Origin: an uncultured Candidatus Peribacteria bacterium | Lineage (GTDB): Bacteria > Patescibacteriota > Gracilibacteria > UBA1369 > GWF2-33-10 | Assembly: GCA_964511025.1 (NCBI GenBank) | Contig: CAZEDK010000001.1 | Span: 24,191 to 88,190, forward strand | Reading direction: 5' to 3' | DNA length: 64,000 nucleotides | Shown: piece by piece, positions 5,439 to 56,588 of the stretch | Layout: each line of letters opens with the position of its first letter | How positions within the stretch are numbered: position 1 is the first letter of the stretch | Notes under the pieces: generated by a model | Seen by the model: only the letters and a program-made list of their open reading frames with translations | What the model was told of the DNA's origin: nothing | Database searches by the model: none | Position numbers and translations under genes: made by a program

Positions 5439-6884
5439 TTACAAACCCATTTCTCGTTTTATCGCATTAACATCTCTCACGAGCGAATAATCCTTTCTAA
5501 GTAATTGATCTATTTTGTCACAAGCGTGCATTACAGTCGTATGATTCTTCCCTCCAAATTCAGTTCCGATTTTCTCAAAAGAATAATTTAACTCCTTTCT
5601 AGCCAAATACATAGACAGTTGACGAGGTCTTAAAATTTCTCTTTTTCTCAAATCTCCTTTGATATCATTACCGGTAATCCTGTAATAACTCGACACAATA
5701 TCAATAACATCATAAACCGTTCTGGCAATACCTTTTTCCGGCACATAATCATAGTTGGAACCTTTTATTTCAACATGTGAATCGAATTTAAGAAGATATC
5801 TCCCAACCATTTTGACAGTAGGTGTTGTATTTTCCAATTTCGCTTTTGCTATCGCTTGCATCAATATTCCTTCAAGAGTTCTTACGTTATCCTGCACATT
5901 ATAAGCAATAAATTCGAGTACTTCCAAAGGAATAATTGCCTGCTGTTCAAGTGATTTCATCTGCAATATCGCAAGCCTGGTTTCATAATCCGGAGCACTT
6001 ACGTCAACCATCATACCCATTTCAAATCGACTCCGGAGCCTGTCTTCTATACCTTTGAGTTCTCTCGGTGATTTGTCGCTACTAAGTATTATTTGTTTGT
6101 GATTGTTATAAAGTTCATCAAAAGTATGAAAAAATTCTTCCTGTGTTCTTTCACGAGAGCCAAGAAATTGAATATCATCAATAATTAAACAATCAATATT
6201 TCTATACTTTTTCTTAATATCACCCATTTTGAAAGTTCGAATACCTTCAACTATTTCATTTACAAAATTCTCAGCAGTCGTATAAACAACAGAATAATGA
6301 GGAAAATTCTCTAAAATCGCATTTCCTGTCGCATGCAACAAATGCGTTTTACCGAGTCCAACTCCACCATATATAAACAAAGGATTGTAATTGCCGCCAG
6401 GCTTATGTGAAACAGCACTGCACGCAGCATGAGCCAAACGAGTCCCCTGCCCTACAACAAAACTTTTCAAAGAATATCTGCAATTGATTTTTTTACTTCT
6501 GATCCCATGAATATTAACTTCATCTTTGTTTGGTAATTTCCTTGGAGAAGGCTTCACATCCTCTTTTATTTTCATATCGCTTTTTTTGATACGAAAAACT
6601 TCCGTATTATCAGGATCAATAAAACTTTCATGCACTTCATATTCAACAGATTCAATAGCCGGATCATATTGAGATAAAACTTGGCATACAACATGATGAT
6701 ATCTGGATAAAATCCATTCTTGTGCATATATATTTGAAAGACCAATAACGCAAACACCACCTTGAATTTTAATAATCGCACTATTGTTAAACCAAGTTAC
6801 AAACATCACTCTATTAGCTACACCTTTTTCAATGTCAACAAGACAAGCTTTCCAAAAAGCCTTATTTGAAGCAAATTGATGCAT
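5439..6884 (-). CDS. dnaA: Chromosomal replication initiator protein DnaA
   Basis: Walker A GGVGLGKTHLLHA, Walker B CLIIDDIQFL, and the C-terminal DNA-binding signature GGKNHTTVMHACDKI. Confidence 0.97.
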   Translation of the reverse strand: MHQFASNKAFWKACLVDIEKGVANRVMFVTWFNNSAIIKIQGGVCVIGLSNIYAQEWILSRYHHVVCQVLSQYDPAIESVEYEVHESFIDPDNTEVFRIKKSDMKIKEDVKPSPRKLPNKDEVNIHGIRSKKINCRYSLKSFVVGQGTRLAHAACSAVSHKPGGNYNPLFIYGGVGLGKTHLLHATGNAILENFPHYSVVYTTAENFVNEIVEGIRTFKMGDIKKKYRNIDCLIIDDIQFLGSRERTQEEFFHTFDELYNNHKQIILSSDKSPRELKGIEDRLRSRFEMGMMVDVSAPDYETRLAILQMKSLEQQAIIPLEVLEFIAYNVQDNVRTLEGILMQAIAKAKLENTTPTVKMVGRYLLKFDSHVEIKGSNYDYVPEKGIARTVYDVIDIVSSYYRITGNDIKGDLRKREILRPRQLSMYLARKELNYSFEKIGTEFGGKNHTTVMHACDKIDQLLRKDYSLVRDVNAIKREMGL

Positions 6885-6962: not shown

Positions 6963-7328
6963 TCATCTAAAATCACCCATTCTATCCAAAATCGCCTCTA
7001 TCGCAGCAAATATTTGAGAATAATATTTTGACTCCAGCTTCCCAATTTTTCTGATAATTCTTCTTTTATCGGCAACTCTTATTTGATCAAACATTAGTTT
7101 TGACATTTCTTCCAAGCCATTTTCTTTATTTGCACTGACAACTATTTCAAATGGATAAATCTTATTAACTTTTTTTGAAGTGAATGGAGCCAATAATACG
7201 GTTTGTGAAAAATTTAACCCGGCATTTGTCTGCAATATCAAACACGGTCTTAAACCTGCCTGCTCAACACCGCAAACAGGATCTAAACTCACAAAACAAA
7301 TATCAAATTGTCTTATATTATTAAGCAT
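6963..7328 (-). CDS. mazF: MazF/PemK-family endoribonuclease toxin
   Basis: 121 aa. FDICFVSLDPVCGVEQAGLRPCLILQTN matches the MazF/PemK N-terminal signature. The start overlaps the upstream antitoxin stop by 8 nt. Confidence 0.85.
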   Translation of the reverse strand: MLNNIRQFDICFVSLDPVCGVEQAGLRPCLILQTNAGLNFSQTVLLAPFTSKKVNKIYPFEIVVSANKENGLEEMSKLMFDQIRVADKRRIIRKIGKLESKYYSQIFAAIEAILDRMGDFR

Positions 7329-7554
7329 TTTCTCTTTGTTTAATTAAACGAGAATAATCATCGAAATCTAGCATAGCAAGCTTAATATCTTCTTCATCTC
7401 TAGACAAAAATCCCTCAATCATGCGCTGCTGCAATATAAATTTTCTATAAATATCCAAAGCTGTATTGATTTGCTCAGATTTATTTTGATAAGAATCAAG
7501 AAATTGCTTATTTGCACGAGTCGCTGAGAATGAAGTGACAACTGTATTTGCCAT
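7321..7554 (-). CDS. Putative antitoxin partner of the MazF-like toxin
   Basis: 77-aa ORF immediately upstream of, and overlapping, the toxin gene. Called from position and size only. Confidence 0.6.
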   Translation of the reverse strand: MANTVVTSFSATRANKQFLDSYQNKSEQINTALDIYRKFILQQRMIEGFLSRDEEDIKLAMLDFDDYSRLIKQRENA

Positions 7555-7692: not shown

Positions 7693-7929
7693 ATGAATCA
7701 TGCTATCACAACAACATTGTCAGAACCGATATATCATTTCTTAAAAGAAGAATCCAAAGCACAAAAAACATCGCTCAAGGCTATTATTGAATCTGCACTC
7801 AAAGAATATAAAAAGAAAAAAATTATAAGAGAAGTTGAAGAAGCTTTCAAAGATCCTGAAAGACAAAAGGAGCAAAGAGAAATTTGTAGTCAATTTCGAG
7901 AAGTTCAACTTCAGTCTTTAAGACTTTAA
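7693..7929 (+). CDS. Putative ribbon-helix-helix antitoxin of the second MazF-like module
   Basis: 78 aa. TTTLSEPIYHFLKEESKAQKTSLKAIIESALKEY looks RHH/CopG-like. It ends 2 nt before the toxin start. A TATAAT sits at 7674-7679. Confidence 0.6.
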   Translation: MNHAITTTLSEPIYHFLKEESKAQKTSLKAIIESALKEYKKKKIIREVEEAFKDPERQKEQREICSQFREVQLQSLRL

Positions 7930-7931: not shown

Positions 7932-8294
7932 ATGGAAATCAAAAAATATGATATCTGGCTCGCCGATCTGAGTCCAAAAAAAGGTTCAACACAATCAGGA
8001 GTTAGACCTTGTATAATTTTACAAAGCAATCTTTTTAATAAAAATTCCAGCACTGTAATTTTAGTGGCACTTAGCACAAAAAAAATAAAACTTTATTCAA
8101 ATGAATTTATTATCAACGCTTCTTTATCAAATGGACTCAAAGAAAATTCAAGATTTCTAGGCAATCAGATAATTACACTAGATAAAAATTATATTCTCAA
8201 AAAACTAGGTTCACTCGAAGAAAAGTATTACAGCAAAGTCTATGAAGCACTAAATCTCTCACTCGATTTAGAAAATATGTTTTTGGAGTATTAG
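7932..8294 (+). CDS. mazF: MazF/PemK-family endoribonuclease toxin (second copy, divergent from the first module)
   Basis: 120 aa. YDIWLADLSPKKGSTQSGVRPCIILQSN parallels the first toxin. The last base of its TAG stop (G at 8294) is the first base of the inserted MITE. Confidence 0.85.
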   Translation: MEIKKYDIWLADLSPKKGSTQSGVRPCIILQSNLFNKNSSTVILVALSTKKIKLYSNEFIINASLSNGLKENSRFLGNQIITLDKNYILKKLGSLEEKYYSKVYEALNLSLDLENMFLEY

Positions 8295-8556: not shown

Positions 8557-8689
8557 GTTTGTCATTCCAGACCTGATCTGGAATCCAGTAGGGTAAACTT
8601 GTTTGTATTTCAAATCTAAACAATGTTTCAAGGCTATCGCAACATAATGCGCAATTCCTAGATCCCAGACTGGATCTGGGATGACAAAC
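8557..8689. mobile_element. MITE-like element, family 2, copy A (hairpin-terminated, 133 bp)
   Basis: Left end GTTTGTCATTCCAGACCTGATCTGGAATCC. Right end GATCCCAGACTGGATCTGGGATGACAAAC, the inverted counterpart. Each end is itself an 8-bp-stem hairpin. The internal blocks (CAGTAGGG.AAACT, TATTTCAA, AGGCTATCGC) are shared with 12918-13040. Confidence 0.65.
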
Positions 8690-8739: not shown

Positions 8740-8768
8740 TTGACAAAGAGCCAAACTAATGATATAAA
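8740..8768 (+). promoter_or_regulatory. Near-consensus sigma70-type promoter upstream of the 1363-aa ORF
   Basis: TTGACA (8740-8745), a 17-nt spacer ending in TG, then TATAAA (8763-8768), about 42 nt upstream of the ATG at 8810. Confidence 0.5.
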
Positions 8769-8809: not shown

Positions 8810-11800
8810 ATGGGAGCAGCAAATACATCAACACCAGAAGGTAAAGAAAACCAATCATCTGTAGCACCGCTCAAAAGTTTAGACGATACTACAGACACAG
8901 AGGCTAATCCAACACCAGACAATAATGACGAGGGCGATTGTTTTATCGATTATGCGGATGAGTCTTCGCTTGAACCGATGCCGGCGAATGATACGCCTGC
9001 AGCAGAAACAAAAGTTGCCGAAGAAGTAAGAACGGAAGTAGCTGAAGTAGCGACAACAGCTATCGATATTCCAGCACTCAATCCATATCCTGAGATATTT
9101 ACATGGGAAGAGAAAGAAAACGCTAAATTTGCTGATTTACCAAATCATGAAAGACTCGCCATATCAAAATACCCTTATTTAATGGATCTTCTTCGTAATT
9201 TTGCTTTTTGCACATATACTTACAACCCAATAGAAAATATTGATTCTGTGAGTATTTCTTTTGGAAATGAAGAATTTCCACCAATGGATACATCTTCAAG
9301 TCTTGGGATGATGATGGCTAATGCAATAATACAAAAAATATATGAAACCATTGGCGTTGGCAGTGAGACAGTCACTAAAAGAACAGAAGATGAGAATGAA
9401 AAATTGCATTTAACTTGTAATGTACATACAAATTCTCAACAACCAAATATAGCAAAAATAACAGACCCAGCTAACAACAAGATAGGATTTGATGCCTTAT
9501 TATTAACAGTGGATCAATTCAGACAAAATAACAATCAAGGAACAACCATTACAGGAATATCTCTCACCTATGGCGAAGGAGCTATATTAGAGTTTCCAAT
9601 GGATAGACCTGATGAACCTCTGATGCTTGAGTGTATGCTTAGATTATTTTTCGATAAAACCGCGATACAAACATTATACAATGAAATAAAAGACAAAAAA
9701 CCTAAATATGAGCAGTGGCAAAAAAAAAGAAAAGGGACATATCCGCAAATTGCAATAATTTATCATCCAGCAGAATTAGATATCGATGAAAATAGCTTCG
9801 AACGTCTAAGCTCTCTACTAGAGCCTCAATTAGTCCAAAATGAAAGATGGAGTCAAGTTCAAGCAATTACTCTTGAAACCAATGGTGATGACCGGAAGAG
9901 TGCATTTGATTTGACTAACAATAACGAATTAAACACAGCAGAAACATTTTTAGAAAAAAATCCAGAAGCGATTTTGTCGGATTATACGATTAATGGAGAG
10001 ACAATATACGCAGGAGATTTATTAACGGAAGATGAGTTAGGGGAAACTCCAGCAGCATGGGAAGGAGCAGAAAAAATCGCAAGAGGTGAACAAGTTGAAC
10101 CGCTTGCATTGCTAGCTGCAGTTTCAGCAGATCACAGTGTTACCGCAAATCCACTTAACGCTAACCCGGAGTCAACAACAGGTGGGTCAAAAAAGACAAT
10201 TGTAATTAGACATAACCCTGAGAATGATGCAGATGGTAGAAGATTCCAATGGCAACCCGCAGACATTGGAAAAGTAATTAGAATAAAAAAGGCACCAACA
10301 CCAACTTTACAGAATCAAGCAGGTATTATAGGTGATGATATGTCTACATCTAGCCCAGCACGATTTGGCACTGAAAAGCCTCTGCAACCCAAAAATGAAG
10401 TTTTAGCTAGTTTGAATGAGGCTCACGATACTTCAAGGGCGATGAATGAAGAAGGCAAACAATTAGGACGACAAGCTTTTACAGCTTTATCAGGCACACC
10501 TGACTCAGTATCAGGATATTCTACAAATAATGATTCACCACTTAGAATAGCTCATGCACCTGCGCCATGGGAAAATGGAAAAGAGTTGATATACGGTAAA
10601 GTTAAGCCGCCACAATCTATTTTATATCGAACTATCGCACCGCCATGGGAACCCGATACTATAGCTGTTACAATACAGCATTCTTCAAAACGACAGCCAC
10701 CAAAACCTATAATATTACAAGGCGCTGCAATCAATCCAGTAGCATATCAAACATTGCCTGAGTCGAGCATAAAGAAAAAGAATACAATAGTAGATATTGC
10801 TAGCTCGGATTTTTTGCCACCACCTTCTGCATTTAGCCCCCCTGACAAACAGAAACAGGCGAATCTCCCCAGCAGTAGCGGTCAAAATGGTAGTTCAGTC
10901 TACATAGTTCCTATTGCCAAACCAGCAAAAGATTCAACATCTAATACAGCTCTTCAAGTACCAACAAACGGAGGTAGTTTGCCTCCTGCGTTAAAATCTT
11001 CAACTAGATCCCAAGTCACATCGCAAAGAGCAGAACAAAATGAAGCAAATCAACTATCAAGCAAGCTAGCGAAGCTTCTTGGTAGCCAATCTACCCCATT
11101 GAACCCAAAACAATCTGGCTCTAAGCCTTCTGCATCACAAAAGAAAGAAGCACCTACAGGAACAGCTCCTTCTGTCGCATCAACGACAACTCCAAAAAAT
11201 GCACCGCCAACAGCTTCACTGCCAACCATAAAACCAACAGATACTCCAGCAGAAAAACAATTAACTTTTAGAACAGACGACGCTAACTCTACAAGCACCA
11301 TATCCCCAGTCCCACGATCACAAGACACACACTTAGCAGAAAGAAGGCGCGGTTTGCCAAAATGGGGTTACGCTATAGCTGCGACAGTTCTTTTTGGTCT
11401 TGGCGCTTTGGGAATACATTTACGCTCATCTGATATTCAAGTTGCAAGTAATGATGCTCCAACACCAACTCCAATAATTGCAAAAGCTGATCCAGTACCG
11501 GTTGTCAGTCGAGACTCTTCGTCGCCTCAGAGTGACACAAGGGACAGTGCTTCAAGTGCTACAGCAGAAAAAACAGATAGTTCTGTAATAACAGCACCTG
11601 CTAGCACTGAAGGAGCACAAACTGTTACCATCAACACAACTCGCAGGAAAAAAGCAGATCAAGTTTACGCCAAGATGTTAAAAGCTGCAGAAGAGAGTAA
11701 CATGAAATTAAAACCATTTTTGGAACAGTTTTTATCACCAAAGGCGAATCAAGCTCTTGGCGCGCGAGGTATTTCATTATCAGACTTTAATTCGAAGATG

Positions 11801-12901
11801 ACAACAGCAGGCTTAGCAATACCAACTGGCTCATCTCCACTTGATAATGTAACATTTGGCAACAACAAAGAAGCTTCAGCACTTGCGATGACATGGTCAA
11901 TGAATTCAGTTTATAATGTGAGCTCATCATATCCAAATGATGGAAAAGTTCATAAATCAATGGATGATTTCACGCGTGCTACAAGCATTCAACTAGCTGA
12001 ATTAAATGGAATATTTGATGACAAACAAGAAGCAACAGCTAGCTTAGAAATTGATGCAGTTAGCCCCCTTGACACCAGCCCGCCCGCCTGTACCGATTCG
12101 GGCAGGACTACATTCTGGCAAGAAGGGGGGCAGGGGGGATTTGATCCACAAACCGTTGTAAATGCCGACAACAGCAGTCCTGATCTAAGTACAGATAATG
12201 GATTACATGCAAATAGTGATACAAAAGCAGATCACAAAGTAAATTCCGCCCAATCAGCCATTTATCTGCCACTAAATAACGAGAAAGGTAGTCCGGAACA
12301 AATTAATGTAGTAGCAAATGCTATAAAAAACCGACCAACTAATGGTGCTGTTGAATTTGCTTTGCAAGACGGTACAGTAGTTTGTTATGCACCTACAGGA
12401 GTATATTCTGTATTTAACAAAGATGGCACACCAAATAACAGTTCACCTTATCTAGCAAGGCTCAACAGCAAAAAACCTGAAAACGCAGCAAGGTCGTTAA
12501 GGTCTAATCGAGACAATCCACTTGCAGGAGTATCATTTGAAGGATCTGCACCAATAGGCTATGCAACAATTGCACAACGTCAATTTATTGACGGCATCAT
12601 AGCTCAAGAAGAACCTGTGATTCATACCTATACAGATACTGACGACGATGCTGAACCGACATCTTCTGAAGAACCTGCAAACAGTCTTCTAGCACAAACT
12701 ACGAACGATCCATTTTTCCAAGAACTGGATAACAAAATAGACAGCTTATTGGCATCGCTAGAAAGCCCCCTTGACAAAGGGGGTCAGGGGGATTTCCCCA
12801 ACAATGGTAGCCTAATTGGCAGTTCGGATGCTTATGTTGTGGCTACAGCGAAAAACGAAGGAGTAAGCGATGTCAATTTTGGAGAGATTTTTGATGCGTG
12901 A
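8810..12901 (+). CDS. Large orphan protein (1363 aa): low-complexity, Pro/Ser/Thr/Ala-rich, one central TM helix, no recognisable domain
   Basis: An uninterrupted 4.1-kb ORF in an AT-rich genome cannot be chance. It has its own strong promoter. The TM segment WGYAIAATVLFGLGALGIHL is encoded at about 11351-11422 and is preceded by RRRGLPK. The second half is visibly richer in G+C than the neighbouring genes. Confidence 0.8.
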   Translation: MGAANTSTPEGKENQSSVAPLKSLDDTTDTEANPTPDNNDEGDCFIDYADESSLEPMPANDTPAAETKVAEEVRTEVAEVATTAIDIPALNPYPEIFTWEEKENAKFADLPNHERLAISKYPYLMDLLRNFAFCTYTYNPIENIDSVSISFGNEEFPPMDTSSSLGMMMANAIIQKIYETIGVGSETVTKRTEDENEKLHLTCNVHTNSQQPNIAKITDPANNKIGFDALLLTVDQFRQNNNQGTTITGISLTYGEGAILEFPMDRPDEPLMLECMLRLFFDKTAIQTLYNEIKDKKPKYEQWQKKRKGTYPQIAIIYHPAELDIDENSFERLSSLLEPQLVQNERWSQVQAITLETNGDDRKSAFDLTNNNELNTAETFLEKNPEAILSDYTINGETIYAGDLLTEDELGETPAAWEGAEKIARGEQVEPLALLAAVSADHSVTANPLNANPESTTGGSKKTIVIRHNPENDADGRRFQWQPADIGKVIRIKKAPTPTLQNQAGIIGDDMSTSSPARFGTEKPLQPKNEVLASLNEAHDTSRAMNEEGKQLGRQAFTALSGTPDSVSGYSTNNDSPLRIAHAPAPWENGKELIYGKVKPPQSILYRTIAPPWEPDTIAVTIQHSSKRQPPKPIILQGAAINPVAYQTLPESSIKKKNTIVDIASSDFLPPPSAFSPPDKQKQANLPSSSGQNGSSVYIVPIAKPAKDSTSNTALQVPTNGGSLPPALKSSTRSQVTSQRAEQNEANQLSSKLAKLLGSQSTPLNPKQSGSKPSASQKKEAPTGTAPSVASTTTPKNAPPTASLPTIKPTDTPAEKQLTFRTDDANSTSTISPVPRSQDTHLAERRRGLPKWGYAIAATVLFGLGALGIHLRSSDIQVASNDAPTPTPIIAKADPVPVVSRDSSSPQSDTRDSASSATAEKTDSSVITAPASTEGAQTVTINTTRRKKADQVYAKMLKAAEESNMKLKPFLEQFLSPKANQALGARGISLSDFNSKMTTAGLAIPTGSSPLDNVTFGNNKEASALAMTWSMNSVYNVSSSYPNDGKVHKSMDDFTRATSIQLAELNGIFDDKQEATASLEIDAVSPLDTSPPACTDSGRTTFWQEGGQGGFDPQTVVNADNSSPDLSTDNGLHANSDTKADHKVNSAQSAIYLPLNNEKGSPEQINVVANAIKNRPTNGAVEFALQDGTVVCYAPTGVYSVFNKDGTPNNSSPYLARLNSKKPENAARSLRSNRDNPLAGVSFEGSAPIGYATIAQRQFIDGIIAQEEPVIHTYTDTDDDAEPTSSEEPANSLLAQTTNDPFFQELDNKIDSLLASLESPLDKGGQGDFPNNGSLIGSSDAYVVATAKNEGVSDVNFGEIFDA

Positions 12902-12917
12902 TTACCTTGTCATTCTA

Positions 12918-13040
12918 GTTTGTCATTCCTGCGCAGGCAGGAATCCAGTAGGGCAAACTATCTGTGTATTTCAAGTTACAAAGGCTATCGCGATGTAATT
13001 AGCAGTTCTGGATCCCAGATCGGAGTCTGGGATGACAAAT
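12918..13040. mobile_element. MITE-like element, family 2, copy B (123 bp), same orientation as copy A
   Basis: Ends are GTTTGTCATTCCTGCGCAGGCAGGAATCC … GATCCCAGATCGGAGTCTGGGATGACAAAT. It is flanked on both sides by ATTACCTTGTCATTC (12901-12915 and 13039-13053), which suggests insertion into a pre-existing solo hairpin unit. Confidence 0.65.
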
Positions 13041-13046
13041 TACCTT

Positions 13047-13071
13047 GTCATTCCTGCGAAGACAGGAATCC
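13047..13071 (+). repeat. Solo hairpin repeat unit (GTCATTCC-loop-GGAATCC), 15 nt from the GIY-YIG stop codon
   Basis: GTCATTCCTGCGAAGACAGGAATCC. It belongs to the same family as the left ends of the family-2 MITEs. Confidence 0.7.
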
Positions 13072-13086
13072 AATAGAGTCAACTGT

Positions 13087-13374
13087 CTAGAAATCTTCAT
13101 ACAAATCCTTCCAGCACGGATTCTCTTTTTCAATCAAATTTAACTTCCAAAGTCTTTTCCATGCTTTCATTTGTTTTTCTCTCTCAATAGCAAAATTGAT
13201 ATTTTCAAATTCTTCGTACCACACTAAATTTTTTACTTTGTATTTCTTTGTAAAGCCATCAATCAAACCTTCTTTGTGTTCATAAATTCTTCTTGATAAA
13301 TCATTTGTTACACCAATATACAAAGTTCCATTCTTTTTACTAGCTAAAATGTAGACATAGTATTTGTTAGACAT
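13087..13374 (-). CDS. Small GIY-YIG nuclease family protein (UPF0213/URI-domain type)
   Basis: 95 aa. YYVYILASKKNGTLYIGVTNDLSRRIYEHK carries the GIY…YIG motifs and the conserved R and E. ATG start at 13374. Confidence 0.9.
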   Translation of the reverse strand: MSNKYYVYILASKKNGTLYIGVTNDLSRRIYEHKEGLIDGFTKKYKVKNLVWYEEFENINFAIEREKQMKAWKRLWKLNLIEKENPCWKDLYEDF

Positions 13375-13613
13375 TTATTTAATTTATAATTCTGGATTCC
13401 AGCCTTTGCTGGAATGACATAGTCACGATCAACACCCCTCTCAGCAAGCGTATCCAGATATAGCTCTATCGCCTCTATTATATTATATTTTGCTTCTTCA
13501 AAAGTATCGCCTTCACTAATACAACCTGGCAAATCCGGCACTTCAGCTGTAAAACCGCCTTCTTCCTGAGCAGTAAAAATCACTTCAAATTGAAACTGTT
13601 TTTTCTTTTTCAT
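13344..13613 (-). CDS. HicB-like (UPF0150) antitoxin-family protein; orphan, with a C-terminal tail encoded by the hairpin repeat
   Basis: FEVIFTAQEEGGFTAEVPDLPGCISEGDTFEEAKYNIIEAIELYL is a typical HicB N-terminal domain. No HicA-like ORF is adjacent. The last about 25 residues (…VIPAKAGIQNYKLNK…) come from the repeat and overlap the GIY-YIG start by 31 nt. Confidence 0.7.
   Translation of the reverse strand: MKKKKQFQFEVIFTAQEEGGFTAEVPDLPGCISEGDTFEEAKYNIIEAIELYLDTLAERGVDRDYVIPAKAGIQNYKLNKCLTNTMSTF
13394..13418 (-). repeat. Solo hairpin repeat unit in inverted orientation, 19 nt upstream of the GIY-YIG start
   Basis: GGATTCCAGCCTTTGCTGGAATGAC is the reverse complement of GTCATTCCAGCAAAGGCTGGAATCC. 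It also encodes the VIPAKAGIQ tail of the HicB-like ORF. Confidence 0.7.
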
Positions 13614-16953: not shown

Positions 16954-17157
16954 CTCTCAGTTCTCAACTCTCAGTTCTCAACTCTCAGCTCTCAGCTCTC
17001 AGCTCTCAACTCTCAGTTCTCAGCTCTCAGTTCTCAGCTCTCAGTTCTCAACTCTCAGTTCTCAGCTCTCAGTTCTCAGCTCTCAGCTCTCTCAGTCCCA
17101 AAGGGACCCCCTTGGGGCTCTCAGCTCTCAGCTCTCAGTTCTCAACTCTCAGTTCTC
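16954..17157. repeat. Heptanucleotide tandem array (CTCAGYT/CTCAACT, about 29 units) split by a GC-rich palindrome
   Basis: Read directly: ctcagtt ctcaact ctcagtt ctcaact ctcagct ctcagct … The central sequence CCCAAAGGGACCCCCTTGGGG lies at about 17097-17117. The array produces the spurious SQLSALSSQ ORFs in the track. Confidence 0.9.
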
Positions 17158-18166
17158 TATAAAAACCCTGCGCTATTTTACCTGCATTTTCCAATAACTG
17201 CAAAGCAGATTGAAAAGTTTGCATACCTTCTTTTTGTCCAATTTGCATTAACGAATAAATTTGTTTTGTTTTACCTTCGGCAATGCAGTTTTTGATACCG
17301 CTGCTTGCCATCATCACTTCACACGCAAGTATTCTGCGACTGTTATCTTTCGAAGCTATCAAATTTTGCGAAACAACACCTGCCAAAGTTGAAGACAGTT
17401 GCGTTTTGACCTGAACCTGCTGTGCTTCAGGAAAAACATCAATGATCCTGTCAATAGTTTGAGGTGCATCAATTGTATGCAAAGTTGAGAAAACCAGATG
17501 ACCGGTTTCAGCAAGAGTCAAAGCCGCTGAAATTGTTTCATAGTCACGCATTTCACCAATCATGACAACATCAGGATCCTCCCTGAGAGAAGATCTTATA
17601 GCATCCAAAAATGAAGAAGTATGATGACCTACCTCTCTTTGTGTAATCATAGCTTTTTTGCTTGTATGAAGAAATTCAATTGGGTCTTCGACAGTTACTA
17701 TGTGACAGGCTCTGTTTTGATTAATTAGATCAATAAGAGAAGCCAAAGTAGTACTTTTACCATTACCTGTAGGACCTGTAACCAGAACTAAACCTTTATT
17801 TAGAGTTGCAAAAGTTTTAACTGAATCCGGTAAATTCAAAGTGTTAATGTCTGGTACAACAGTTGGTATCACTCGAAAAGCCATGCAGTATCCTAAATAA
17901 TCATTATAAATATTGACTCGAAACCTTCCAAGTCCAGGAAGCTCGTAAGCTATATCAAGATCATGTTTAATAGAAAAACTATCTTTTTTATCACCCAAAA
18001 TTTCATCAATAAAAGCTTTGACATCTTCCGATTTAAGAGCGTCAATATTTGATGGGCGATATAAACTGCCATTACTAAGTCTTATTGTTGGCACGTGAGC
18101 AGCTTTAAAATGCACATCAGAAGCTTTGTGCTCTACAACTTGTTTGAGAATTTCTTTAAAATCCAT
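17135..18166 (-). CDS. pilT: Type IV pilus retraction ATPase PilT
   Basis: 343 aa. Walker A GPTGNGKSTT, MIGEMRD, and FSTLHT (His box). The size and the absence of an N-terminal GspE domain fit PilT. Confidence 0.9.
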   Translation of the reverse strand: MDFKEILKQVVEHKASDVHFKAAHVPTIRLSNGSLYRPSNIDALKSEDVKAFIDEILGDKKDSFSIKHDLDIAYELPGLGRFRVNIYNDYLGYCMAFRVIPTVVPDINTLNLPDSVKTFATLNKGLVLVTGPTGNGKSTTLASLIDLINQNRACHIVTVEDPIEFLHTSKKAMITQREVGHHTSSFLDAIRSSLREDPDVVMIGEMRDYETISAALTLAETGHLVFSTLHTIDAPQTIDRIIDVFPEAQQVQVKTQLSSTLAGVVSQNLIASKDNSRRILACEVMMASSGIKNCIAEGKTKQIYSLMQIGQKEGMQTFQSALQLLENAGKIAQGFYRELRVEN

Positions 18167-20500: not shown

Positions 20501-22030
20501 TCACATCGCATAAGCTTCCGCTCTTTTTTCCCTAATGATATGCACCTCAACAAGCCCCTGATAATCAGCTTCTCCCATTATCTTTTGTACTATTTCCATA
20601 GATAACTTCTTCGCTCTCAAATCATCTATATCTTCAGGATTTACAAAAACCCTCACTTTTCTACCGCTTTGTATAGCATAAACACTTTCAACACCTTCGA
20701 AGCTTTTGGCAATTGATTCAAATTCAGACAATCTCTTGATAAAACTTTCAAGATTTTCTTTTTTCGCTCCAGGCCTATTACTTGAAATTTCTTTCGCAGC
20801 CATCACGACAAAAGCTTCCGCCGATTGGGCTTTCACATTTGGATTTTGAGCTTCTACTATATGAATAATTTCAGGACTTAAATTGAATTTTCTAAGTATA
20901 TCTGCGCTTATTTGAGCATGACTACCTCGAACCTCATGATCAACAGCTTTACCTATCGCATGCAATAATCCGGCTTTTTTTGCCAAATCAGCGTTTGCTC
21001 CAACAGCTTCAGCAATACCTTCAGCCAAAAAAGCAGTCTCAATAGAATGTTTTAATGCATTTTGTCCATAAGAGGTACGAAATCTAAGGCGACCAAGTAT
21101 TTTCAATAAATTGGGTGGAAGGCCGGTTACCCCACTTTCAAAAGCAGCCTTTTCGCCAAGATCTTTTATGAGTATCAAGGTGTCTTTTTTCACCTTATCA
21201 ACAATTTCTTCAATTTTTGCTGGATGAATACGACCATCCGCCACTAATTGCTCAAGTGAAGTTTTTGCAACATACCTTCTGATAGGATCAAAACATGAAA
21301 TCAATATTGAGCCGGGCGTATCATCTACTATAACATCAACTCCAGTAATACGTTCAAAAGCATTTATATTCCTACCTTCTCTACCTATAATTCTTCCCTT
21401 TAGCTCATCACTTTCCAACTGAATAGTGGTTGTAGTGGTTTCAGAAACAACCTCGGCTGAATACTTCTGAATAGCTTCCGCAATCAACATGCGAGCTTTA
21501 TCATTCATTTCTTTTTTCATATCATCTTCCAATCTTTCTATATGTTTTAAAATATCGCCACGAGACTCATCTTCAACTTTCGCAAAAAGGATTTCTCTCG
21601 CTTCATCTTTTGATAAATTGGAAACCTTTTGAAGCTCTTCAGCTTGCTTGTTATATAATTTTTCAACCTCTACTTTTACTTCTCTCACTTTACTAATTTT
21701 AATCTCAAGCTCCTCTTTTGTCTTATCCAAAGTTTCTATTTTCTTCTCCATTTCCTCTTCTTTTCTGAGAAGTCTTTCTTCAGTTTTTCGAATCTCTAAA
21801 TACTTTTGCTGTTGCTCTCTTTGAGCTTCTTGACGCATTTTCAAAGCTTCATTTTGAGCTTGTGAAAGTGTTGTATGCATTTTTTTCTGTGAGATCTGAA
21901 ACTCTTCTTCTTGTTTTTCTCTCTCTTTTTCAAGTTTTTTCTGAAAAAGTAAACGATTCACAATAATTCCAATGACTATACCTAAGAAAATCCCCGGTAC
22001 AAATAGTACCACTGTTGCTGATGTAGGCAT
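20501..22030 (-). CDS. rny: Ribonuclease Y
   Basis: N-terminal TM helix, long Glu/Lys coiled coil, KH region (GRIIGREGRNINAFE) and HD domain (LLHAIGKAVDHE). The track ORF starts at TTG 22042; the ATG at 22030 is preferred. Confidence 0.93.
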   Translation of the reverse strand: MPTSATVVLFVPGIFLGIVIGIIVNRLLFQKKLEKEREKQEEEFQISQKKMHTTLSQAQNEALKMRQEAQREQQQKYLEIRKTEERLLRKEEEMEKKIETLDKTKEELEIKISKVREVKVEVEKLYNKQAEELQKVSNLSKDEAREILFAKVEDESRGDILKHIERLEDDMKKEMNDKARMLIAEAIQKYSAEVVSETTTTTIQLESDELKGRIIGREGRNINAFERITGVDVIVDDTPGSILISCFDPIRRYVAKTSLEQLVADGRIHPAKIEEIVDKVKKDTLILIKDLGEKAAFESGVTGLPPNLLKILGRLRFRTSYGQNALKHSIETAFLAEGIAEAVGANADLAKKAGLLHAIGKAVDHEVRGSHAQISADILRKFNLSPEIIHIVEAQNPNVKAQSAEAFVVMAAKEISSNRPGAKKENLESFIKRLSEFESIAKSFEGVESVYAIQSGRKVRVFVNPEDIDDLRAKKLSMEIVQKIMGEADYQGLVEVHIIREKRAEAYAM

Positions 22031-22379
22031 TTTAGTATACAAATTAAGGACTAAAGGTGCGCTTTAGCTCTTAAAGATATGCAATAAATTGGGCTATTTA
22101 AAAACATTTTTTCCTATACTATCAAGCTATTTTTTTTGAAAAATAACTATTTTATAACATTTTCTCCGCAAAGTTTTTAAACAAATTCGGTTTAAATTAA
22201 ATTTTCACAATATTAGGTCAACATTAATTTTTAATTCATTCTTAATTCAAACATCTTACGCCCAACAGTATTGATTCCTTTAAGACGAACGCTTATTTTT
22301 CTTAACTAACGGTTAGATTGTACAAAAATACCCAACAAAGGTCAACGAACATGAAAATAAGACTTGCGTAATAGAAAAT

Positions 22380-23558
22380 CTATTGCAAAACAGCAATCAA
22401 ATTATTCAAATCATCTAAATTTTTGATTAGAATTTTTTCTTTTGCTTTAAATGACTCAAAGAGTTTTTGCTGTTTTTCATTCATTTCAGATTGATATTTA
22501 ACTTCTATCAATCTTTTATCTTGTGTGAAAAAATCAATTTCTATCGTGTTTTCATATACATACACAGGATTCATTTTTTTTATCATTAAATAAACATAAT
22601 TTTCAAAAATAGCTCCTTTGTCTCTAAACCCATTAAATATCGTTCTGATGCCTAAATCACATGCATATATTTTATTTGGCGAAAGAATTCTCGTATTGGT
22701 TTTGCCGTAACGTTTGATTGAATATATTAAAAAGGTATCTTCAAACATGTTAAGATACCTTTTTGCGCTATCAACAGAGATTGACAATATATTTGCAATT
22801 TTATTAATACTAATTTGCTTTCCAGATCTTTCCATCAAAAGTAAGAATAAATCTTTTAAAATTTCAACATTTTTAATATTATAAAATGATGCTATATCTT
22901 TTTTTAAAATATCATCTATGAGTTCTTTAATGTATTCAATATTACCAGTTAAAACGTACTGAGGTATACCACCTGTCTGCATATAATCTTCAAAATAGAC
23001 ATCTCTCAAATTAGAATCTAATTTCGAAATTTGAATATTTTTGAAAAGCAAATATTCATCAAAATTTAAAGATAATATTTCCACAATGTTAGCTCGTCCA
23101 GTTATAAATGGTTTTTTTGATTTAAGTATTGAAGCACTTGAAGAAGAAGCAAAGATTTTTACATTTTGATTGTCAAAGATATTTTTAAGCTGTAATTCAA
23201 AATCTTCTTTATATGTAACTTCATCAAAAAATAAATATATTTTTTGATGAAATGGAATTCTGTTAATAGCTCTAAAATCCTCAATAATCTCAATAATACT
23301 TTTTTCTCTCAAAAGATAATCGTCTAAACTTACATAAAATAAATGTTTTGGATTAATTTGTTTACTCTCTATAAGATTGTTTATAAGAATTTTCATCAAA
23401 GTCGTTTTCCCAACCCTTCTTAATCCTGTAATCAAAGTTATACTATCCAAAGCGACCTCGCGCTGAAGAATTTGCAAATATTTCTGCCTGACTATATATA
23501 TTGAGGATTGAAAATCTTCTTCCCACCAAGGATTATACCTGAAATAAATTTCTTGCAT
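22380..23558 (-). CDS. AAA-type ATPase with a DUF4143-like C-terminal domain
   Basis: 392 aa. Walker A GLRRVGKTT, Walker B-like YLFFDEV. The layout is typical of AAA_14 plus DUF4143 ATP-binding proteins. Confidence 0.75.
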   Translation of the reverse strand: MQEIYFRYNPWWEEDFQSSIYIVRQKYLQILQREVALDSITLITGLRRVGKTTLMKILINNLIESKQINPKHLFYVSLDDYLLREKSIIEIIEDFRAINRIPFHQKIYLFFDEVTYKEDFELQLKNIFDNQNVKIFASSSSASILKSKKPFITGRANIVEILSLNFDEYLLFKNIQISKLDSNLRDVYFEDYMQTGGIPQYVLTGNIEYIKELIDDILKKDIASFYNIKNVEILKDLFLLLMERSGKQISINKIANILSISVDSAKRYLNMFEDTFLIYSIKRYGKTNTRILSPNKIYACDLGIRTIFNGFRDKGAIFENYVYLMIKKMNPVYVYENTIEIDFFTQDKRLIEVKYQSEMNEKQQKLFESFKAKEKILIKNLDDLNNLIAVLQ

Positions 23559-23726
23559 TTTTATTTTGTTAAAAATTATTGCACAGTAAATTTACTATAC
23601 GCTGTCATCGTACAATTTTGCAAGTTTTTGTGCGTTGCTGTCGTATAGTTTTAGAACTAGACAGCCCCAAAACGAAGTTATAGTATCTAAACAGAATCGA
23701 GAGTTGAAAATTCTATAAATAAAGAC

Positions 23727-24824
23727 ATGCAAACTTTTCTTATCATATTAGGACTTATCATCACTGGAGCTTTGGCTTATTTAATTGTTATTTTTCAAAA
23801 ATCACAAACTGAGAAAGAAGATCCAATGCAAAAACTAATGCTTGAAATGGTGAATAATCTTCGACGCGATTTAAATGAAAGTTCCGGAAAACAAAGAATA
23901 GAACTACAGCAACGTCTTGATAAAATTCACGAACAGATATCAAAACATCAACAAAATTCATCTGACACAATGCAAAAGCAATTTCATCAAAGTGCAAATA
24001 TTATAAAAGAAGTAACCGAGAAATTGACAAAACTCGACGAAACCAATAAGCAAGTTGTAGGTTTTGCCGAACAAATGAAAAGTCTTGAAAATATCCTCAA
24101 AAACCCAAAACAAAGAGGAATTCTTGGTGAATACATGCTGGAAACATTGTTAAATAATGTACTTCAGCCTACTCAGTATCAAATGCAATACAAATTCAAA
24201 AATGGTGAAATTGTTGATGCTGTAATATTCGTAAAAGATAAAATCATTCCAATTGACGCAAAATTTTCACTGGAAAAATACAACAAAATCATGGAAGAAA
24301 GTAACAGCGAAAGAAGAAAAGATTTAGAAACCGCTTTTAAAAACGATGTTAAAATCAGAATCGACGAAACTTCAAAATATATACGAGAAAACGAAGATAC
24401 AATGGAATTTGCATTTATGTTTATTCCCGCAGAAGGTGTTTATTACAACTTACTTATATACAACGTTGGCATGGACATCAACTCGCACAACCTAATTGAA
24501 TATGCTTTTAAGAAAAGAGTTATAATTGTCTCCCCTACGAGTTTTTATGCTTACTTGATTACCGTTTTACAAGGACTCAAAGCGTTACAGATAGAAGAAT
24601 CAGCGAAAGATATTAGAAAAAAAGTTGATGAACTTGCCAGGCACATGAAAGCTTATGAGCAATTTATGATGGAATTGGGCAAAAATCTTGGCACAACTGT
24701 AAATAAGTACAATACTGCACACAATGAATTCAGAAAAATCGATAAGGATATTTATAAAATTACTGAAGGAATACATGGAGGCAATGTCGAAATAATGATA
24801 CTGGACAAACCAAACATAGAATAA
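23727..24824 (+). CDS. rmuC: DNA recombination protein RmuC
   Basis: N-terminal TM helix, coiled coil, then QRGILGEYMLE, IPIDAKF and FMFIPAEGVY, which match the RmuC nuclease-like core. Confidence 0.85.
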   Translation: MQTFLIILGLIITGALAYLIVIFQKSQTEKEDPMQKLMLEMVNNLRRDLNESSGKQRIELQQRLDKIHEQISKHQQNSSDTMQKQFHQSANIIKEVTEKLTKLDETNKQVVGFAEQMKSLENILKNPKQRGILGEYMLETLLNNVLQPTQYQMQYKFKNGEIVDAVIFVKDKIIPIDAKFSLEKYNKIMEESNSERRKDLETAFKNDVKIRIDETSKYIRENEDTMEFAFMFIPAEGVYYNLLIYNVGMDINSHNLIEYAFKKRVIIVSPTSFYAYLITVLQGLKALQIEESAKDIRKKVDELARHMKAYEQFMMELGKNLGTTVNKYNTAHNEFRKIDKDIYKITEGIHGGNVEIMILDKPNIE

Positions 24825-24913
24825 AATATTTTACCAATTTTTTAAGTTCTTTGAAGGAAAATTGAAAACTTCTGTGATAAGAGTATCTCTTGAAGTTTTT
24901 AAATTTCACAATT

Positions 24914-27900
24914 ATGAACAAAAAAATTACTCTAATAATTTTATTAGCCATATTAAACTTAAGCATAATTAGCTATTCAATTTCACAAGCAAATTCTGAT
25001 TACGAAAATAAAATAATTATTAACGAAATCGCGGCATTTGAAGATTCAGGATCTGAATGGATAGAGATTTTAAATCTTTCAGAAAACGCAATTGATTTAA
25101 CCGGTTGGAAATTTTTTGAAGACAGTACAAAACATGGACTTTCAGTTTATAGCGGAGATTTAATTTTGGAAAGCGGTGAATATGCAATTATAGCAGATGA
25201 AGCTGAAACTTTTTCAATAAATCATCCTGAAGTCTCTGGAACGATTATAGATAGCTCTTGGACAAGTTTGAAGGAAAGCGGTGAAGAAATAGGATTAATT
25301 GATAGCGAAACAAATTATGTCGAATTATTTACTTATATCGAAGCTACAAATTTCTCACTTGAAAGAAAGAATCCATATTCTTCCATCTATAATTCTGAAA
25401 ATTGGCAAGAGCATTCAAATTCAGACAGCGCAGGATATCAAAACAGTAATTATTCGATCCCTGCAACAACAAGTAACCAAGGAGAATCTCAATCGGAAAC
25501 ACAACTGGAAATTCCAAACATTCAAGATCTTGAAATATCATTCAATGGAAATTTTATAAATATCAATTTTGAATTCGAAGATGAAGCTCAAAACACCTTA
25601 ATACTAAAATCTGTAAATGAAATTGATGCAACTGTCGATAACGGTAGCTCTTATCAAAAAGGAGATTTTTTAAATAACGCAGAAATCATTAGCGTCCAAA
25701 GCGAAAATGAATTTGATGATTACGATTTCGAAGAAAATCAAAAATATTTTTACAAAATTTTTAGTTATGATGAAGACTTCAATTACAGCGATGGTATCAA
25801 CGGAGAAATAACAATTTCAAATATTACAAATTCCGGAGATTTGATAATCAATGAATTCGTATCCAGTCCAAATGATAGCGAATTAGAATGGATAGAGCTT
25901 TTTAATACTACAGATAATGAAATAAATTTGGAAAATGTCTATTTGACGGATGGAAGCAATACAAAACATTTTTTAAGTGAATCTATAGACTCAAAAAATT
26001 ATAAAATTATTGAAAATTTGAAGTTTGCGTTAAATAATTCAGATGACACGATCAAATTATATAACAATTTTGAACAAGAAATTTATTCAATTTCCTATGG
26101 CAATACAACATTATCAGCTCCAGCAAAAGGTCAAAGTGCCGGACTATATGACAACAAATTTATTATTTTTTCTAATCCGACAAAAGGATATGAGAATAAA
26201 ATTATCAACAACAAAGCAAAAGCAATTATCAAAATACAAAGCGGATCTACTTCCGGCGAAGGCAGTGTAACTATAAATCTTGATGGCAGTGATTCTTACG
26301 ACATAGATGGCGATGAGTTAATCTATGAATGGGATTTTGGTGACGGAACAAAGTCTGACAAAGCAAATCCAAATAGTAAAACATACGAAAAGACAGGAGA
26401 ATATCTAATTTCTCTCAAAGTTACTGATATATGGCAGGAAACTGACATTGACACGCTTGAAATAACAGTCAAAGAAAAATCATCATCAAATAAAACAAAA
26501 AATACAAACAGCAAAAATAAAAAATCACAAAAAAGCAACAAAGAATCGTCAACAAACAACGAAAATAAAAGCGAAGAACCTATCATCTATGATGATTTTT
26601 CGAGCATAAAAATTACTGAATTTATGCCAAATCCAATAGATTCAGACAGTGGCAATGAATGGATAGAACTTTACAATGCAGGCTCAGACACGATTAGTTT
26701 GAATGGACTTCTTCTCGATGATAATGAAGATGGATCAAGCCCTTTTGATCTAAAAAATTACACTATTGCTACAAATTCATATATTGTTATCTATTCAAAA
26801 GATAGCGAGCTGACATTAAATCAATCTGAAGACAAAGTAAGACTGATTTCAAATAATGAAATCATTGATGAGGTTTCATATACCGAAGAAGCAGAAGAAG
26901 GATTTTCTTATGCGCTCATTGATGATAAATGGAAATGGCTGGAAACTGGCAGTCCTGGATACGAGAACACAATAAACGAGGAATATAATCAAGAATCAGA
27001 AGAAATGGATAATGACACTCAATCAGATCAGAATTTAGAAAATTTAGAAATCAAAAATTATTCAAATGCCATATTTATTTCAGAAGTTTTTCCAAATCCA
27101 AGCGGTAAAGACAGTAATCAAGAATGGATAGAATTATTTAACAGCGGTGACAATGTGGCAAACTTGAAAGATTTCAGTCTCGACGATAGCGAAGATGGTA
27201 GCAAAAAGTTCATTTTTAACGAAGGTATTTTTATAGAGCCATATTCTTATTTTTTAATTTATAGTTACGATTCAAAAATCAATCTAAATAATACCGAAGA
27301 TTCAGTACGATTATTTAATCCTGACAAGTTTATTGCTGATCAAATATATTATGAAGAAGCTCCCGAAAATCAAAGTTTTGCACGTTTTGATGGTAATTTT
27401 TTGTGGACTAACAAGCCAACACCAAATAGTATTAATATTTTAAGCGCAGAAAATGAAGAAGACAGTGAGAAAAATATTCAAAAATATCAAAATGGAAATA
27501 TAAGCGAGAATATATTTATAAGCGAAATCCTCCCAAATCCTGAAGGGACAGAAGTCGACAATGAATGGATAGAGATTTATAATAATGATAATAAGGACAT
27601 TAATCTTGGGAATTGGTATTTGATGGATAACAGCAAAAGTGAAAAAAAATACATTTTTCCTGATACAGTGATTTTAAAAGCAAACTCATACCTCATAATA
27701 CCACGCAAAAAATCAAAAATAGCACTCGACAACAGCAAAGATTCATTATATTTGTACGACTTTGATGAAGAGTTAAAATATTCCGTCAGTTATGAAAAAT
27801 CCATTGAAGGTGAAAGTTATGCTTTGGTCAGCATCAATGAAGAAATAGATAATGAAACTAAAGCCTCAATTGTTTATGCAAATGATATAGTGGAAAATAT

Positions 27901-28312
27901 TTGGACATGGATTGAGAAACCGACGCCTGGCAACAAAAACCCTATTTTTGATAAACTGGAAGGGCAAATCGTAGAAAAACTAGATAATTATTTTTATTTG
28001 CAAACTTCAAGTGGCAAAAAAATTCAAATTAATTTTGGAAATCTGGATATAGAAAGTGAACTTAAGAAAAGTATATTTGAAACAGGCACAAAAATTGAGC
28101 TTCTTGCCTCAAGTATAGATAAAACTACATTTGACCTCAAAGACTTCACAATACTTGAAACGGAAAAAGCTCAAAAATTAGAAAGTCAACAAAATTCTAA
28201 TCTATTTATTTTGATAACAGCATTTATTATTGGACTGATTATCGGCATTTGGAGATTAAAAGACACTGGAAAACTTAAACAATTAGCACAATTTTTCGCA
28301 GAAAAACTTTAA
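24914..28312 (+). CDS. Surface protein with five lamin-tail domains, one PKD-like domain, a C-terminal OB-like module and a TM anchor
   Basis: Signal-peptide-like N-terminus from ATG 24914 (the track starts at TTG 24890). The LTD signature occurs five times (…NE…EWIELxN…, e.g. ISEVFPNPSGKDSNQEWIELFNSGD). PKD-like YEWDFGDGT. C-terminal helix LFILITAFIIGLIIGIW. Confidence 0.85.
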   Translation: MNKKITLIILLAILNLSIISYSISQANSDYENKIIINEIAAFEDSGSEWIEILNLSENAIDLTGWKFFEDSTKHGLSVYSGDLILESGEYAIIADEAETFSINHPEVSGTIIDSSWTSLKESGEEIGLIDSETNYVELFTYIEATNFSLERKNPYSSIYNSENWQEHSNSDSAGYQNSNYSIPATTSNQGESQSETQLEIPNIQDLEISFNGNFININFEFEDEAQNTLILKSVNEIDATVDNGSSYQKGDFLNNAEIISVQSENEFDDYDFEENQKYFYKIFSYDEDFNYSDGINGEITISNITNSGDLIINEFVSSPNDSELEWIELFNTTDNEINLENVYLTDGSNTKHFLSESIDSKNYKIIENLKFALNNSDDTIKLYNNFEQEIYSISYGNTTLSAPAKGQSAGLYDNKFIIFSNPTKGYENKIINNKAKAIIKIQSGSTSGEGSVTINLDGSDSYDIDGDELIYEWDFGDGTKSDKANPNSKTYEKTGEYLISLKVTDIWQETDIDTLEITVKEKSSSNKTKNTNSKNKKSQKSNKESSTNNENKSEEPIIYDDFSSIKITEFMPNPIDSDSGNEWIELYNAGSDTISLNGLLLDDNEDGSSPFDLKNYTIATNSYIVIYSKDSELTLNQSEDKVRLISNNEIIDEVSYTEEAEEGFSYALIDDKWKWLETGSPGYENTINEEYNQESEEMDNDTQSDQNLENLEIKNYSNAIFISEVFPNPSGKDSNQEWIELFNSGDNVANLKDFSLDDSEDGSKKFIFNEGIFIEPYSYFLIYSYDSKINLNNTEDSVRLFNPDKFIADQIYYEEAPENQSFARFDGNFLWTNKPTPNSINILSAENEEDSEKNIQKYQNGNISENIFISEILPNPEGTEVDNEWIEIYNNDNKDINLGNWYLMDNSKSEKKYIFPDTVILKANSYLIIPRKKSKIALDNSKDSLYLYDFDEELKYSVSYEKSIEGESYALVSINEEIDNETKASIVYANDIVENIWTWIEKPTPGNKNPIFDKLEGQIVEKLDNYFYLQTSSGKKIQINFGNLDIESELKKSIFETGTKIELLASSIDKTTFDLKDFTILETEKAQKLESQQNSNLFILITAFIIGLIIGIWRLKDTGKLKQLAQFFAEKL

Positions 28313-38687: not shown

Positions 38688-38847
38688 GGGTCTTGGCAAA
38701 AAATAAGATACCTAAATTGTGCTAGATTTTGTTTTAGATTCTTTTGTTCAAATACAGGAGTTTATCGAGATAAATGACTGAATTTGCAACAAAGAAGATA
38801 ACGCTAAAGATAGTGCAAGGTAGGTGTTTTATTTTTTGCCAAGACCC
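38688..38847. mobile_element. MITE-like element, family 1, copy 2 (inverted relative to copy 1)
   Basis: Flanked by TTA (38685-38687) and TTA (38848-38850). 156 of 160 positions are identical to the reverse complement of 8294-8453. Confidence 0.78.
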
Positions 38848-56581: not shown

Positions 56582-56588
56582 TACAAAT

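Follow-up and report, generated by a model that had tools for sequence, protein, structure and literature searches.

The window considered here comprises 64,000 nucleotides (nt) of contig CAZEDK010000001.1 (assembly GCA_964511025.1), which belongs to an uncultured Candidatus Peribacteria bacterium. One of its genes (Table 1), part of a small variable island adjacent to dnaA, encodes a protein of 1363 amino acids (aa). The gene begins with an ATG at 8810, ends with a stop codon at 12899-12901 after 1363 codons and represents the sole long open reading frame (ORF) of this stretch, whose remaining five frames contain between 43 and 129 stops. The chance of finding 1363 codons without a stop is approximately 1e-38 to 1e-46 (local or window base composition). 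Moreover, in nearly every 100-codon window of the frame the G+C contents at the first, second and third codon positions (GC1, GC2 and GC3) follow the order GC1 > GC2 > GC3, which is typical of coding sequences. Since so many stop-free codons are improbable and the codon positions show this asymmetry, the ORF is a genuine protein-coding gene and a chance frame can be excluded. A Shine-Dalgarno sequence was not found upstream of its ATG. Such a sequence was also not recognisable in the 25 nt before approximately 33 inspected starts from the whole window, where the leaders are merely AT-rich. Hence, its absence is no argument against the start of the large gene, and translation initiation in the source organism appears not to rely on Shine-Dalgarno pairing, as suggested by these leaders.

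Table 1. Position of the large gene, of the predicted parts of its protein and of the adjacent elements, counted from the first letter of the window.
Feature	Positions	Strand	Basis or property
ORF of the 1363-aa protein, stop included	8810-12901	+	ORF list and translation
Acidic N-terminal tail, low hydrophobicity (aa 1-85)	8810-9064	+	net charge -19 over aa 1-100
Putative alpha/beta globular domain, predicted cytoplasmic (aa 86-445)	9065-10144	+	ordinary composition
Pro/Ser/Thr/Ala/Gln-rich region, net basic (aa 446-848)	10145-11353	+	PSTAQGN fraction 0.50-0.74
Predicted transmembrane helix WGYAIAATVLFGLGALGIHL (aa 852-871)	11363-11422	+	single hydrophobicity peak of the protein
Ser/Thr/Pro/Asp-rich stalk, predicted outer side (aa 873-940)	11426-11629	+	GC2 0.632, GC3 0.162
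Acidic C-terminal region, predicted ectodomain (aa 941-1363)	11630-12898	+	composition and motif scan
Candidate sigma-70-like promoter TTGACA-17-TATAAA	8740-8768	+	sequence; predicted function
Element A, 160 nt, MITE-like, near-perfect terminal inverted repeats GGGTCTTGGYAAAAAATAA	8294-8453	.	inverted repeat with 80-nt arms
Element B copy 1, MITE-like, terminal hairpins TTTGTCATTCC..GGAATCCAG and CTGGGATGACAAA	8547-8702	+	
Element B copy 2, MITE-like, same orientation as copy 1	12906-13040	+	begins 5 nt past the stop codon
Hairpin-framed unit with GIY-YIG nuclease ORF (95 aa, 13087-13374)	13045-13419	-	Pfam GIY-YIG 1e-17

The initial annotation of the window, made by a model from the letters alone, had described an acidic N-terminus, approximately 300 aa of ordinary composition, long tracts rich in Pro, Ser, Thr, Ala and Gln, and one transmembrane helix about two-thirds of the way along, without any recognised catalytic or binding motif. 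This outline was found again in all its parts. The region aa 86-445 is the sole long one of ordinary composition (G+C 0.346, hydrophobic fraction 0.28-0.40), and helices and strands appear there in a low-confidence model only. It is followed by the Pro/Ser/Thr/Ala/Gln-rich region, which is probably mostly disordered; the net charge amounts to about +14 over aa 451-850, and aa 446-700 are almost entirely coil in the AlphaFold2 model, again at low confidence. Three [AP][AP]WE motifs are present, two within this region (aa 585 and 611) and one just ahead of it (aa 415). The Kyte-Doolittle profile with a 19-residue window has its maximum of 1.66 at aa 852-871, i.e. 63% along the protein, directly preceded by RRRGLPK at aa 845-851. 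Four positive charges flank this helix on its N-terminal side and one on its C-terminal side, where the flank is nearly uncharged or acidic. The positive-inside rule, applied to this charge asymmetry around a single helix, would place the first ~850 residues in the cytoplasm and the last ~490 outside the cell (N-in/C-out). In the C-terminal region the motif GGQG[GD]F is found twice, from aa 1106 and from aa 1324. Two cysteines (1094, 1192) occur in that region and six in the entire protein (0.4%).

According to the hydrophobicity profile, the acidic and hydrophilic N-terminus carries neither a signal peptide nor a membrane anchor, unlike the FecR-like, LTD/PKD, LytR-like, DsbA-like and YceG proteins encoded in the window, which have an obvious N-terminal hydrophobic segment. 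The helix with its preceding arginines resembles a Tat signal, but it is situated at residue 845 and was not treated as a signal peptide. Internal or tandem repeats were not found in the protein. The motif scan did not reveal catalytic motifs, among them nuclease, NTPase or protease motifs, nor LPXTG or PEP sorting motifs, and the family searches were likewise empty.

The protein had also been called compositionally atypical, with higher G+C at ~10.5-12.2 kb and nearly background values around 9.2 kb. Both local observations are reproduced in 1-kb bins, which have G+C contents of 0.418, 0.426 and 0.426 between 10 and 13 kb compared to 0.26-0.39 in the rest of the window (about 0.33 for the window as a whole), while the 9-10 kb bin with 0.344 corresponds to background. 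A set of 36 genes of the window served as reference for composition. The large gene has a total G+C of 0.406 vs. 0.332±0.034 in these genes (z about 2.2), a GC1 of 0.507 vs. 0.437±0.061 (z about 1.1) and a GC2 of 0.457 vs. 0.313±0.044 (z 3.3), whereas its GC3 of 0.254 is close to their 0.246±0.028 (z 0.3). The term atypical is therefore correct for total G+C and GC2, but not for GC3. The excess G+C is located at codon positions 1 and 2 and comes from an enrichment of Ala, Ser, Thr and Pro, which together account for 35.8% of the protein compared to 21.4% in twelve control proteins; Ile, Leu, Val, Phe, Met and Tyr reach 23.5% compared to 34.6% in the controls.

When the synonymous codon frequencies of the window are applied to the protein sequence, a G+C of 0.401 is expected and 0.406 is observed; split into thirds, the protein gives expected/observed pairs of 0.371/0.367, 0.431/0.431 and 0.396/0.415. 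The synonymous-codon log-likelihood deviates from expectation by -0.046 log units per codon, which falls into the range of native genes (-0.093 to +0.083), and the codon deviation of the gene consists in favouring A-ending over T-ending codons, not G or C. Furthermore, the G+C increase starts within the gene, at the onset of the Pro/Ser/Thr/Ala-rich sequence, and not at the gene borders. Thus, the windowed statistics against the genes of the window yielded a deviation in G+C but none beyond the native range in codon usage. The gene is compositionally native, and its raised G+C is a by-product of the amino-acid make-up of the protein. Because GC3 and synonymous codon use are native, there is no compositional case for the horizontal acquisition suggested in the initial annotation, and a chimeric join to another organism is argued against as well. 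In a genome of low G+C, an excess of 7-9 points can arise wholly from a protein rich in Ala, Pro, Ser and Thr; hence, total G+C is no sign of transfer unless GC3 has been checked.

The description of the protein as an orphan stands. A phmmer search with aa 86-1285 against 1.84 billion representatives, one for each 50% cluster of approximately 15 billion proteins, returned the protein itself as the only match. The same was true for a word-index search with the full-length sequence. Word-index queries with the C-terminal part and the N-terminal domain (E ≤ 10) gave nothing; since these sub-sequence queries also failed to return the parent protein, though the full-length query did, those negatives are weak. 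The whole protein has no family in Pfam, NCBIfam, PHROGs or PADLOC (the best NCBIfam match with E = 0.1 is noise), PHROGs and PADLOC found nothing for the two putative domains, and PADLOC assigned 0 defence families to the whole protein and to both domains. No relative was detected by tblastn among phages and plasmids, viral contigs and GTDB genome contigs, and no paralogue exists within the window. Homology to a housekeeping family was not seen in the Pfam, NCBIfam, PDB or phmmer searches. Prolyl-isomerase matches obtained in the PDB sequence search (E ≤ 10) were rejected; they were marginal (E 0.41) and fell into a low-complexity stretch. Among the approximately 46 scanned ORFs of at least 100 aa, about 40 have a Pfam or NCBIfam match, and the gene is by far the largest without one.

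Structure models did not add a fold. The AlphaFold2 single-sequence models have pLDDT (predicted local distance difference test) values of 33.7 for aa 80-700 and 35.2 for aa 935-1363 and are unusable. In the C-terminal part only about aa 1180-1220 reach 60-68, and almost everything after ~aa 440 is coil. Foldseek searches of these models against the PDB, with nothing below E = 0.1 and query TM-scores ≤ 0.09, were disregarded.

The isolation of the protein has to be seen against the sampling of its lineage. For DnaA, Frr, PilT, GroEL, RmuC and other proteins of the same genome, the 90%-identity cluster in the searched collection contains no further member, and these proteins were seen only on the NCBI contig of 95,031 bp and on Logan assembly fragments of run SRR4343435. 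The source species and its near relatives have been sampled once. The closest DnaA, from Candidatus Peregrinibacteria bacterium RIFOXYB2_FULL_33_20, shares 64% identity and all others ≤43%; the window is accordingly assigned to a low-G+C chromosome of the Peregrinibacteria. At such a distance, a fast-evolving protein of which about half is disorder-like is expected to fall below detection. Hence, sparse sampling accounts for part of the isolation, which is nonetheless real, and the orphan status is less striking because the lineage is represented by a single assembly.

Both sides of the gene carry repeat elements, as had been stated in the initial annotation. Two unrelated families resembling miniature inverted-repeat transposable elements (MITEs) are present. 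Element A begins at the last stop-codon base of the upstream MazF-like gene and has a second copy at 38688-38847; its terminal repeat has 4 matches in the window compared to 0.09 expected. An independent Logan contig with dnaA (SRR4343435) ends ~24 nt into the first copy. Element B occurs in two directly oriented copies of ~140-150 nt, one on each side of the gene, and copy 2 may act as its terminator. All six copies of the hairpin GTCATYCC-N-GGRATS in the window are found at 8561-8685 and 12922-13418, compared to 0.03 expected. Copy 1 folds with -50.4 kcal/mol (z = -5.0). It gives a weak full-length match (28 bits, E 0.013) to Rfam RF02625, WsnRNA46, a family of Wolbachia/Rickettsiales palindromic repeats. 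The likeness includes 151 aligned model positions, matches on both strands and the long-hairpin architecture; however, the score falls well short of the gathering threshold (65), so that element B resembles WsnRNA46 without being a member of the family. The host here is a bacterium of the candidate phyla radiation (CPR).

The hairpin motif is also found elsewhere: 83 exact matches to TGTCATTCC-N8-14-GGAATCCAGTAGGG come from metagenome contigs, whose G+C contents range from 0.33 to 0.63. There it is typically located at one end of an element of 80-150 nt that also possesses a second GTAGGG...CCCTAC hairpin and a ...GGGAATGACA end. On the basis of these matches it looks like a very widely distributed MITE family or one of the repetitive extragenic palindromic (REP) type. 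Literature matching the repeat sequence or the run accession SRR4343435 was not found.

The promoter-like consensus sequence noted ahead of the gene is present and well placed, between element B copy 1 and the ATG, which follows 42 nt downstream. TTGACA (8740-8745) and TATAAA (8763-8768) are separated by 17 nt, and a TG at 8760-8761 provides an extended -10 element. This combination is matched once in 64 kb. Since 0.23 matches per window are expected by chance, its role as promoter of the gene is suggestive only. Generic promoter-like sites are not enriched in the window (18 found vs. 19.5 in shuffles).

The island lies between dnaA (5439-6884, minus strand) and the rseP-frr-pyrH cluster, with rseP 0.9 kb downstream of the large gene; pilT and groEL are further neighbours. 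Besides the two families of miniature elements, it contains two MazEF-like pairs, a HicB-like gene and a GIY-YIG nuclease gene. The two MazF/PemK-like toxin genes are divergent (6963-7328, minus; 7932-8294, plus) and directly upstream of dnaA, each preceded by a small partner ORF (7321-7554, minus; 7693-7929, plus). The GIY-YIG ORF is framed by two inverted copies of the element-B hairpin (13046-13072 and 13393-13419), the right one of which overlaps the 3' part of the HicB-like antitoxin ORF 13344-13613 (HicB_lk_antitox 1.3e-11). This arrangement might constitute a very small mobile unit that carries a nuclease gene; among the 83 metagenome loci, however, the hairpin motif does not generally occur together with GIY-YIG genes. 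In RIFOXYB2_FULL_33_20 synteny is kept beyond dnaA (FecR-like 46%, YceG 36% identity) and lost on the side of the large gene, which is missing upstream of dnaA in this nearest relative (one relative, short contig). A 1398-aa ORF on the relative's contig is unrelated to the large gene.

Several observations concern the wider window. An AbiEii-type nucleotidyltransferase toxin gene (41779-42528) and an unannotated 194-aa partner ORF (41179-41763) interrupt a row of purine-biosynthesis genes between a purN-like formyltransferase gene and a purM-like AIR-synthase-like gene. Near 23.6 kb (window 22000-24900), 17 kb from dnaA, gene orientation flips from minus to plus, which coincides with the minimum of the cumulative GC skew and with the lowest G+C of the window (0.26-0.28). 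This region may be the replication origin; a cluster of E. coli-type DnaA boxes was not found. In addition, the window encodes PilT (17135-18166), a PilB-like ATPase together with a PilC-like platform protein (55352-57824), a VirD4/TrwB-like coupling protein of 862 aa (29489-32077) and a surface protein of 1140 aa that combines a PKD domain with five lamin-tail domains (24890-28312). Such genes for the cell surface and for the transfer of DNA or protein are typical of CPR bacteria.

Taken together, we favour, with a confidence just short of an even chance, that the gene encodes a lineage-restricted bitopic envelope protein in N-in/C-out orientation, i.e. a trans-envelope tether for contact or signalling, whose topology, disorder, expression from the consensus-like promoter and function we infer. 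Inside the cell there would be the acidic tail, a globular region of ~350 aa and a flexible Pro/Ser/Thr/Ala/Gln-rich region of ~400 aa, followed by the one transmembrane helix. Outside, a Ser/Thr/Pro stalk of ~70 aa would carry the acidic ectodomain of ~420 aa through the wall. The ectodomain might then serve as a strain-specific contact domain at the cell surface, facing a host, a neighbouring cell or the matrix, and the long disordered cytoplasmic region with its short motifs may couple it to the intracellular module. For the C-terminal third alone, the earlier label of a surface or interaction protein is plausible, but the first ~850 residues are predicted to stay inside and an N-terminal signal is missing. 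It would be a long shot to go further and assume a new family of disorder-rich tethers for partner contact of CPR bacteria, too fast-evolving or too recent for a relative to be detected among ~15 billion predicted proteins, which the flanking MITEs would have shuffled between genomes of similar composition.

Several points weigh against the envelope-tether reading. The predicted topology depends on a single helix of moderate hydrophobicity, rich in Gly and Ala (peak 1.66), together with the positive-inside rule. Adhesin-type proteins do not usually have 850 aa in the cytoplasm, half of which are disorder-like in composition here. The crude charge-hydropathy index used for disorder discriminated poorly and also scored a beta-rich LTD/PKD protein as 69% unfolded-like. 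Because neither of the two putatively globular regions could be assigned a fold, a contact domain is proposed from architecture and context alone. Moreover, the reading is drawn from a single sampled genome, and the site from which the gene would be expressed is a candidate promoter.

Partial precedents exist for such a protein. Genomes of Peribacteria within the Peregrinibacteria encode many large exported proteins without functional prediction, on average 1655 aa long, which are cysteine-rich and mostly possess signal peptides (PMC4736985). The protein described here is similar in phylum, very large size (1363 aa), missing functional prediction and presumed role in the envelope or at the surface; it differs in its low cysteine content, the absent N-terminal signal and the single internal helix, and shares no sequence similarity with them. 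In streptococci, extracytoplasmic Ser/Thr-rich disordered regions were reported for the membrane-associated proteins PrsA, PBP1a, LytR and PknB (PMC12041528). The Ser/Thr-rich low-complexity sequence at aa 873-940 compares well with these, given its position beside the membrane, on the predicted outer face of a Gram-positive-type envelope. However, there is no homology, the stalk here precedes a large ectodomain, and a probably disordered region of ~400 aa is added on the predicted cytoplasmic side. Unlike in both precedents, most of the mass is on the predicted cytoplasmic side. The protein lacks the features of classical Sec/sortase adhesins, with no N-terminal signal in the hydrophobicity profile, no LPXTG motif, no Ig-like or other adhesin repeats and no Pfam domain. 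The predicted single-pass N-in topology with an external C-terminal domain and the nearby rseP are reminiscent of anti-sigma factors of the RseA/RsgI type, which are cleaved by site-2 proteases of the RseP type. In contrast to these, the protein has no anti-sigma domain in Pfam or NCBIfam and no sigma-factor gene nearby, and its predicted cytoplasmic part is ten times longer. Furthermore, rseP is here part of the conserved pyrH-frr-rseP cluster, and mobile elements lie between it and the large gene.

All rival explanations are less well supported than the envelope tether. The one that survives best, though we regard it as unlikely, is a recently acquired cargo gene, possibly mobilised as a composite unit between the direct copies of element B. 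Elements of the same family bracket the gene, with all copies within 64 kb clustered here, the surroundings consist of toxin-antitoxin and GIY-YIG genes, the gene is missing from the equivalent site in the single relative with its short contig, and the hairpin family is widespread, as shown by the 83 metagenome contigs of very different G+C. However, the outer flanks of the two B elements differ and show no target-site duplication; therefore, an origin as composite transposon is possible but unsupported. A second copy or a relative of the protein is found in no collection, including the 83 element-bearing loci. As GC3 and synonymous codons are native and amino acids fully explain the G+C excess, an acquired cargo gene requires a compositionally identical donor or an old transfer.

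Distinctly unlikely is a core scaffold of the envelope or of cell division, in which the disordered cytoplasmic region recruits partners and the outer domain binds the wall. MapZ and RodZ are bitopic proteins with long linkers, and ZipA and FtsK have linker regions; the predicted N-in/C-out arrangement with a Ser/Thr/Pro linker would resemble them, and the gene adjoins dnaA and a conserved housekeeping cluster. But mobile elements and toxin-antitoxin genes interrupt this adjacency, Pfam and NCBIfam show no helix-turn-helix, LysM, PASTA, SPOR or other wall-binding or division domain, and the missing homologue in the nearest relative and elsewhere is unexpected for a core function.

We give very little credit to the idea of an effector that is translocated via the type IV pilus or a machinery similar to type IV secretion and inserts its helix into a host membrane. 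Genes for a VirD4/TrwB-like coupling protein, PilT, a PilB-like ATPase and a PilC-like protein are present in the window, and the missing Sec signal, the long flexible regions and an acidic C-terminal tail are in line with translocation. The secretion genes are, however, unlinked, 4 to >40 kb away in unrelated operons, and no effector signal or domain is recognised, so the idea is purely architectural. To our knowledge, effector translocation by such systems has not been shown in CPR bacteria. Ranking below this, and very unlikely, is a membrane protein for defence or abortive infection in a defence island. The gene sits among MazEF-like, HicB-like and nuclease genes, but neither PADLOC nor PHROGs yields a match, nuclease, NTPase and protease motifs are lacking, and neither the size nor the disorder is typical of known defence effectors. 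Finally, it is highly improbable that the gene is an artefact, whether a chimeric join of metagenomic sequences at repeats that they share or an ORF that is decaying or never expressed. Both gene borders abut multi-copy repeats occurring in many organisms, and the independent Logan assembly breaks inside element A and did not yield the exact protein. But GC3 and codon choice agree with those of the host genes flanking it, which argues against a foreign join, and an intact 4.1-kb frame in sequence of 33-41% G+C cannot persist without selection.

Returning to the trans-envelope tether, the gene belongs, as a new sequence family, to a kind that is already familiar from CPR bacteria. If the favoured reading is true, it would add a further large lineage-specific envelope protein to those presumed to serve the attached lifestyle of CPR bacteria, with an unusual architecture that has no signal peptide, two thirds of its length predicted inside and more than half of it disorder-like in composition. 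The C-terminal ectodomain would then be a candidate determinant of partner specificity.

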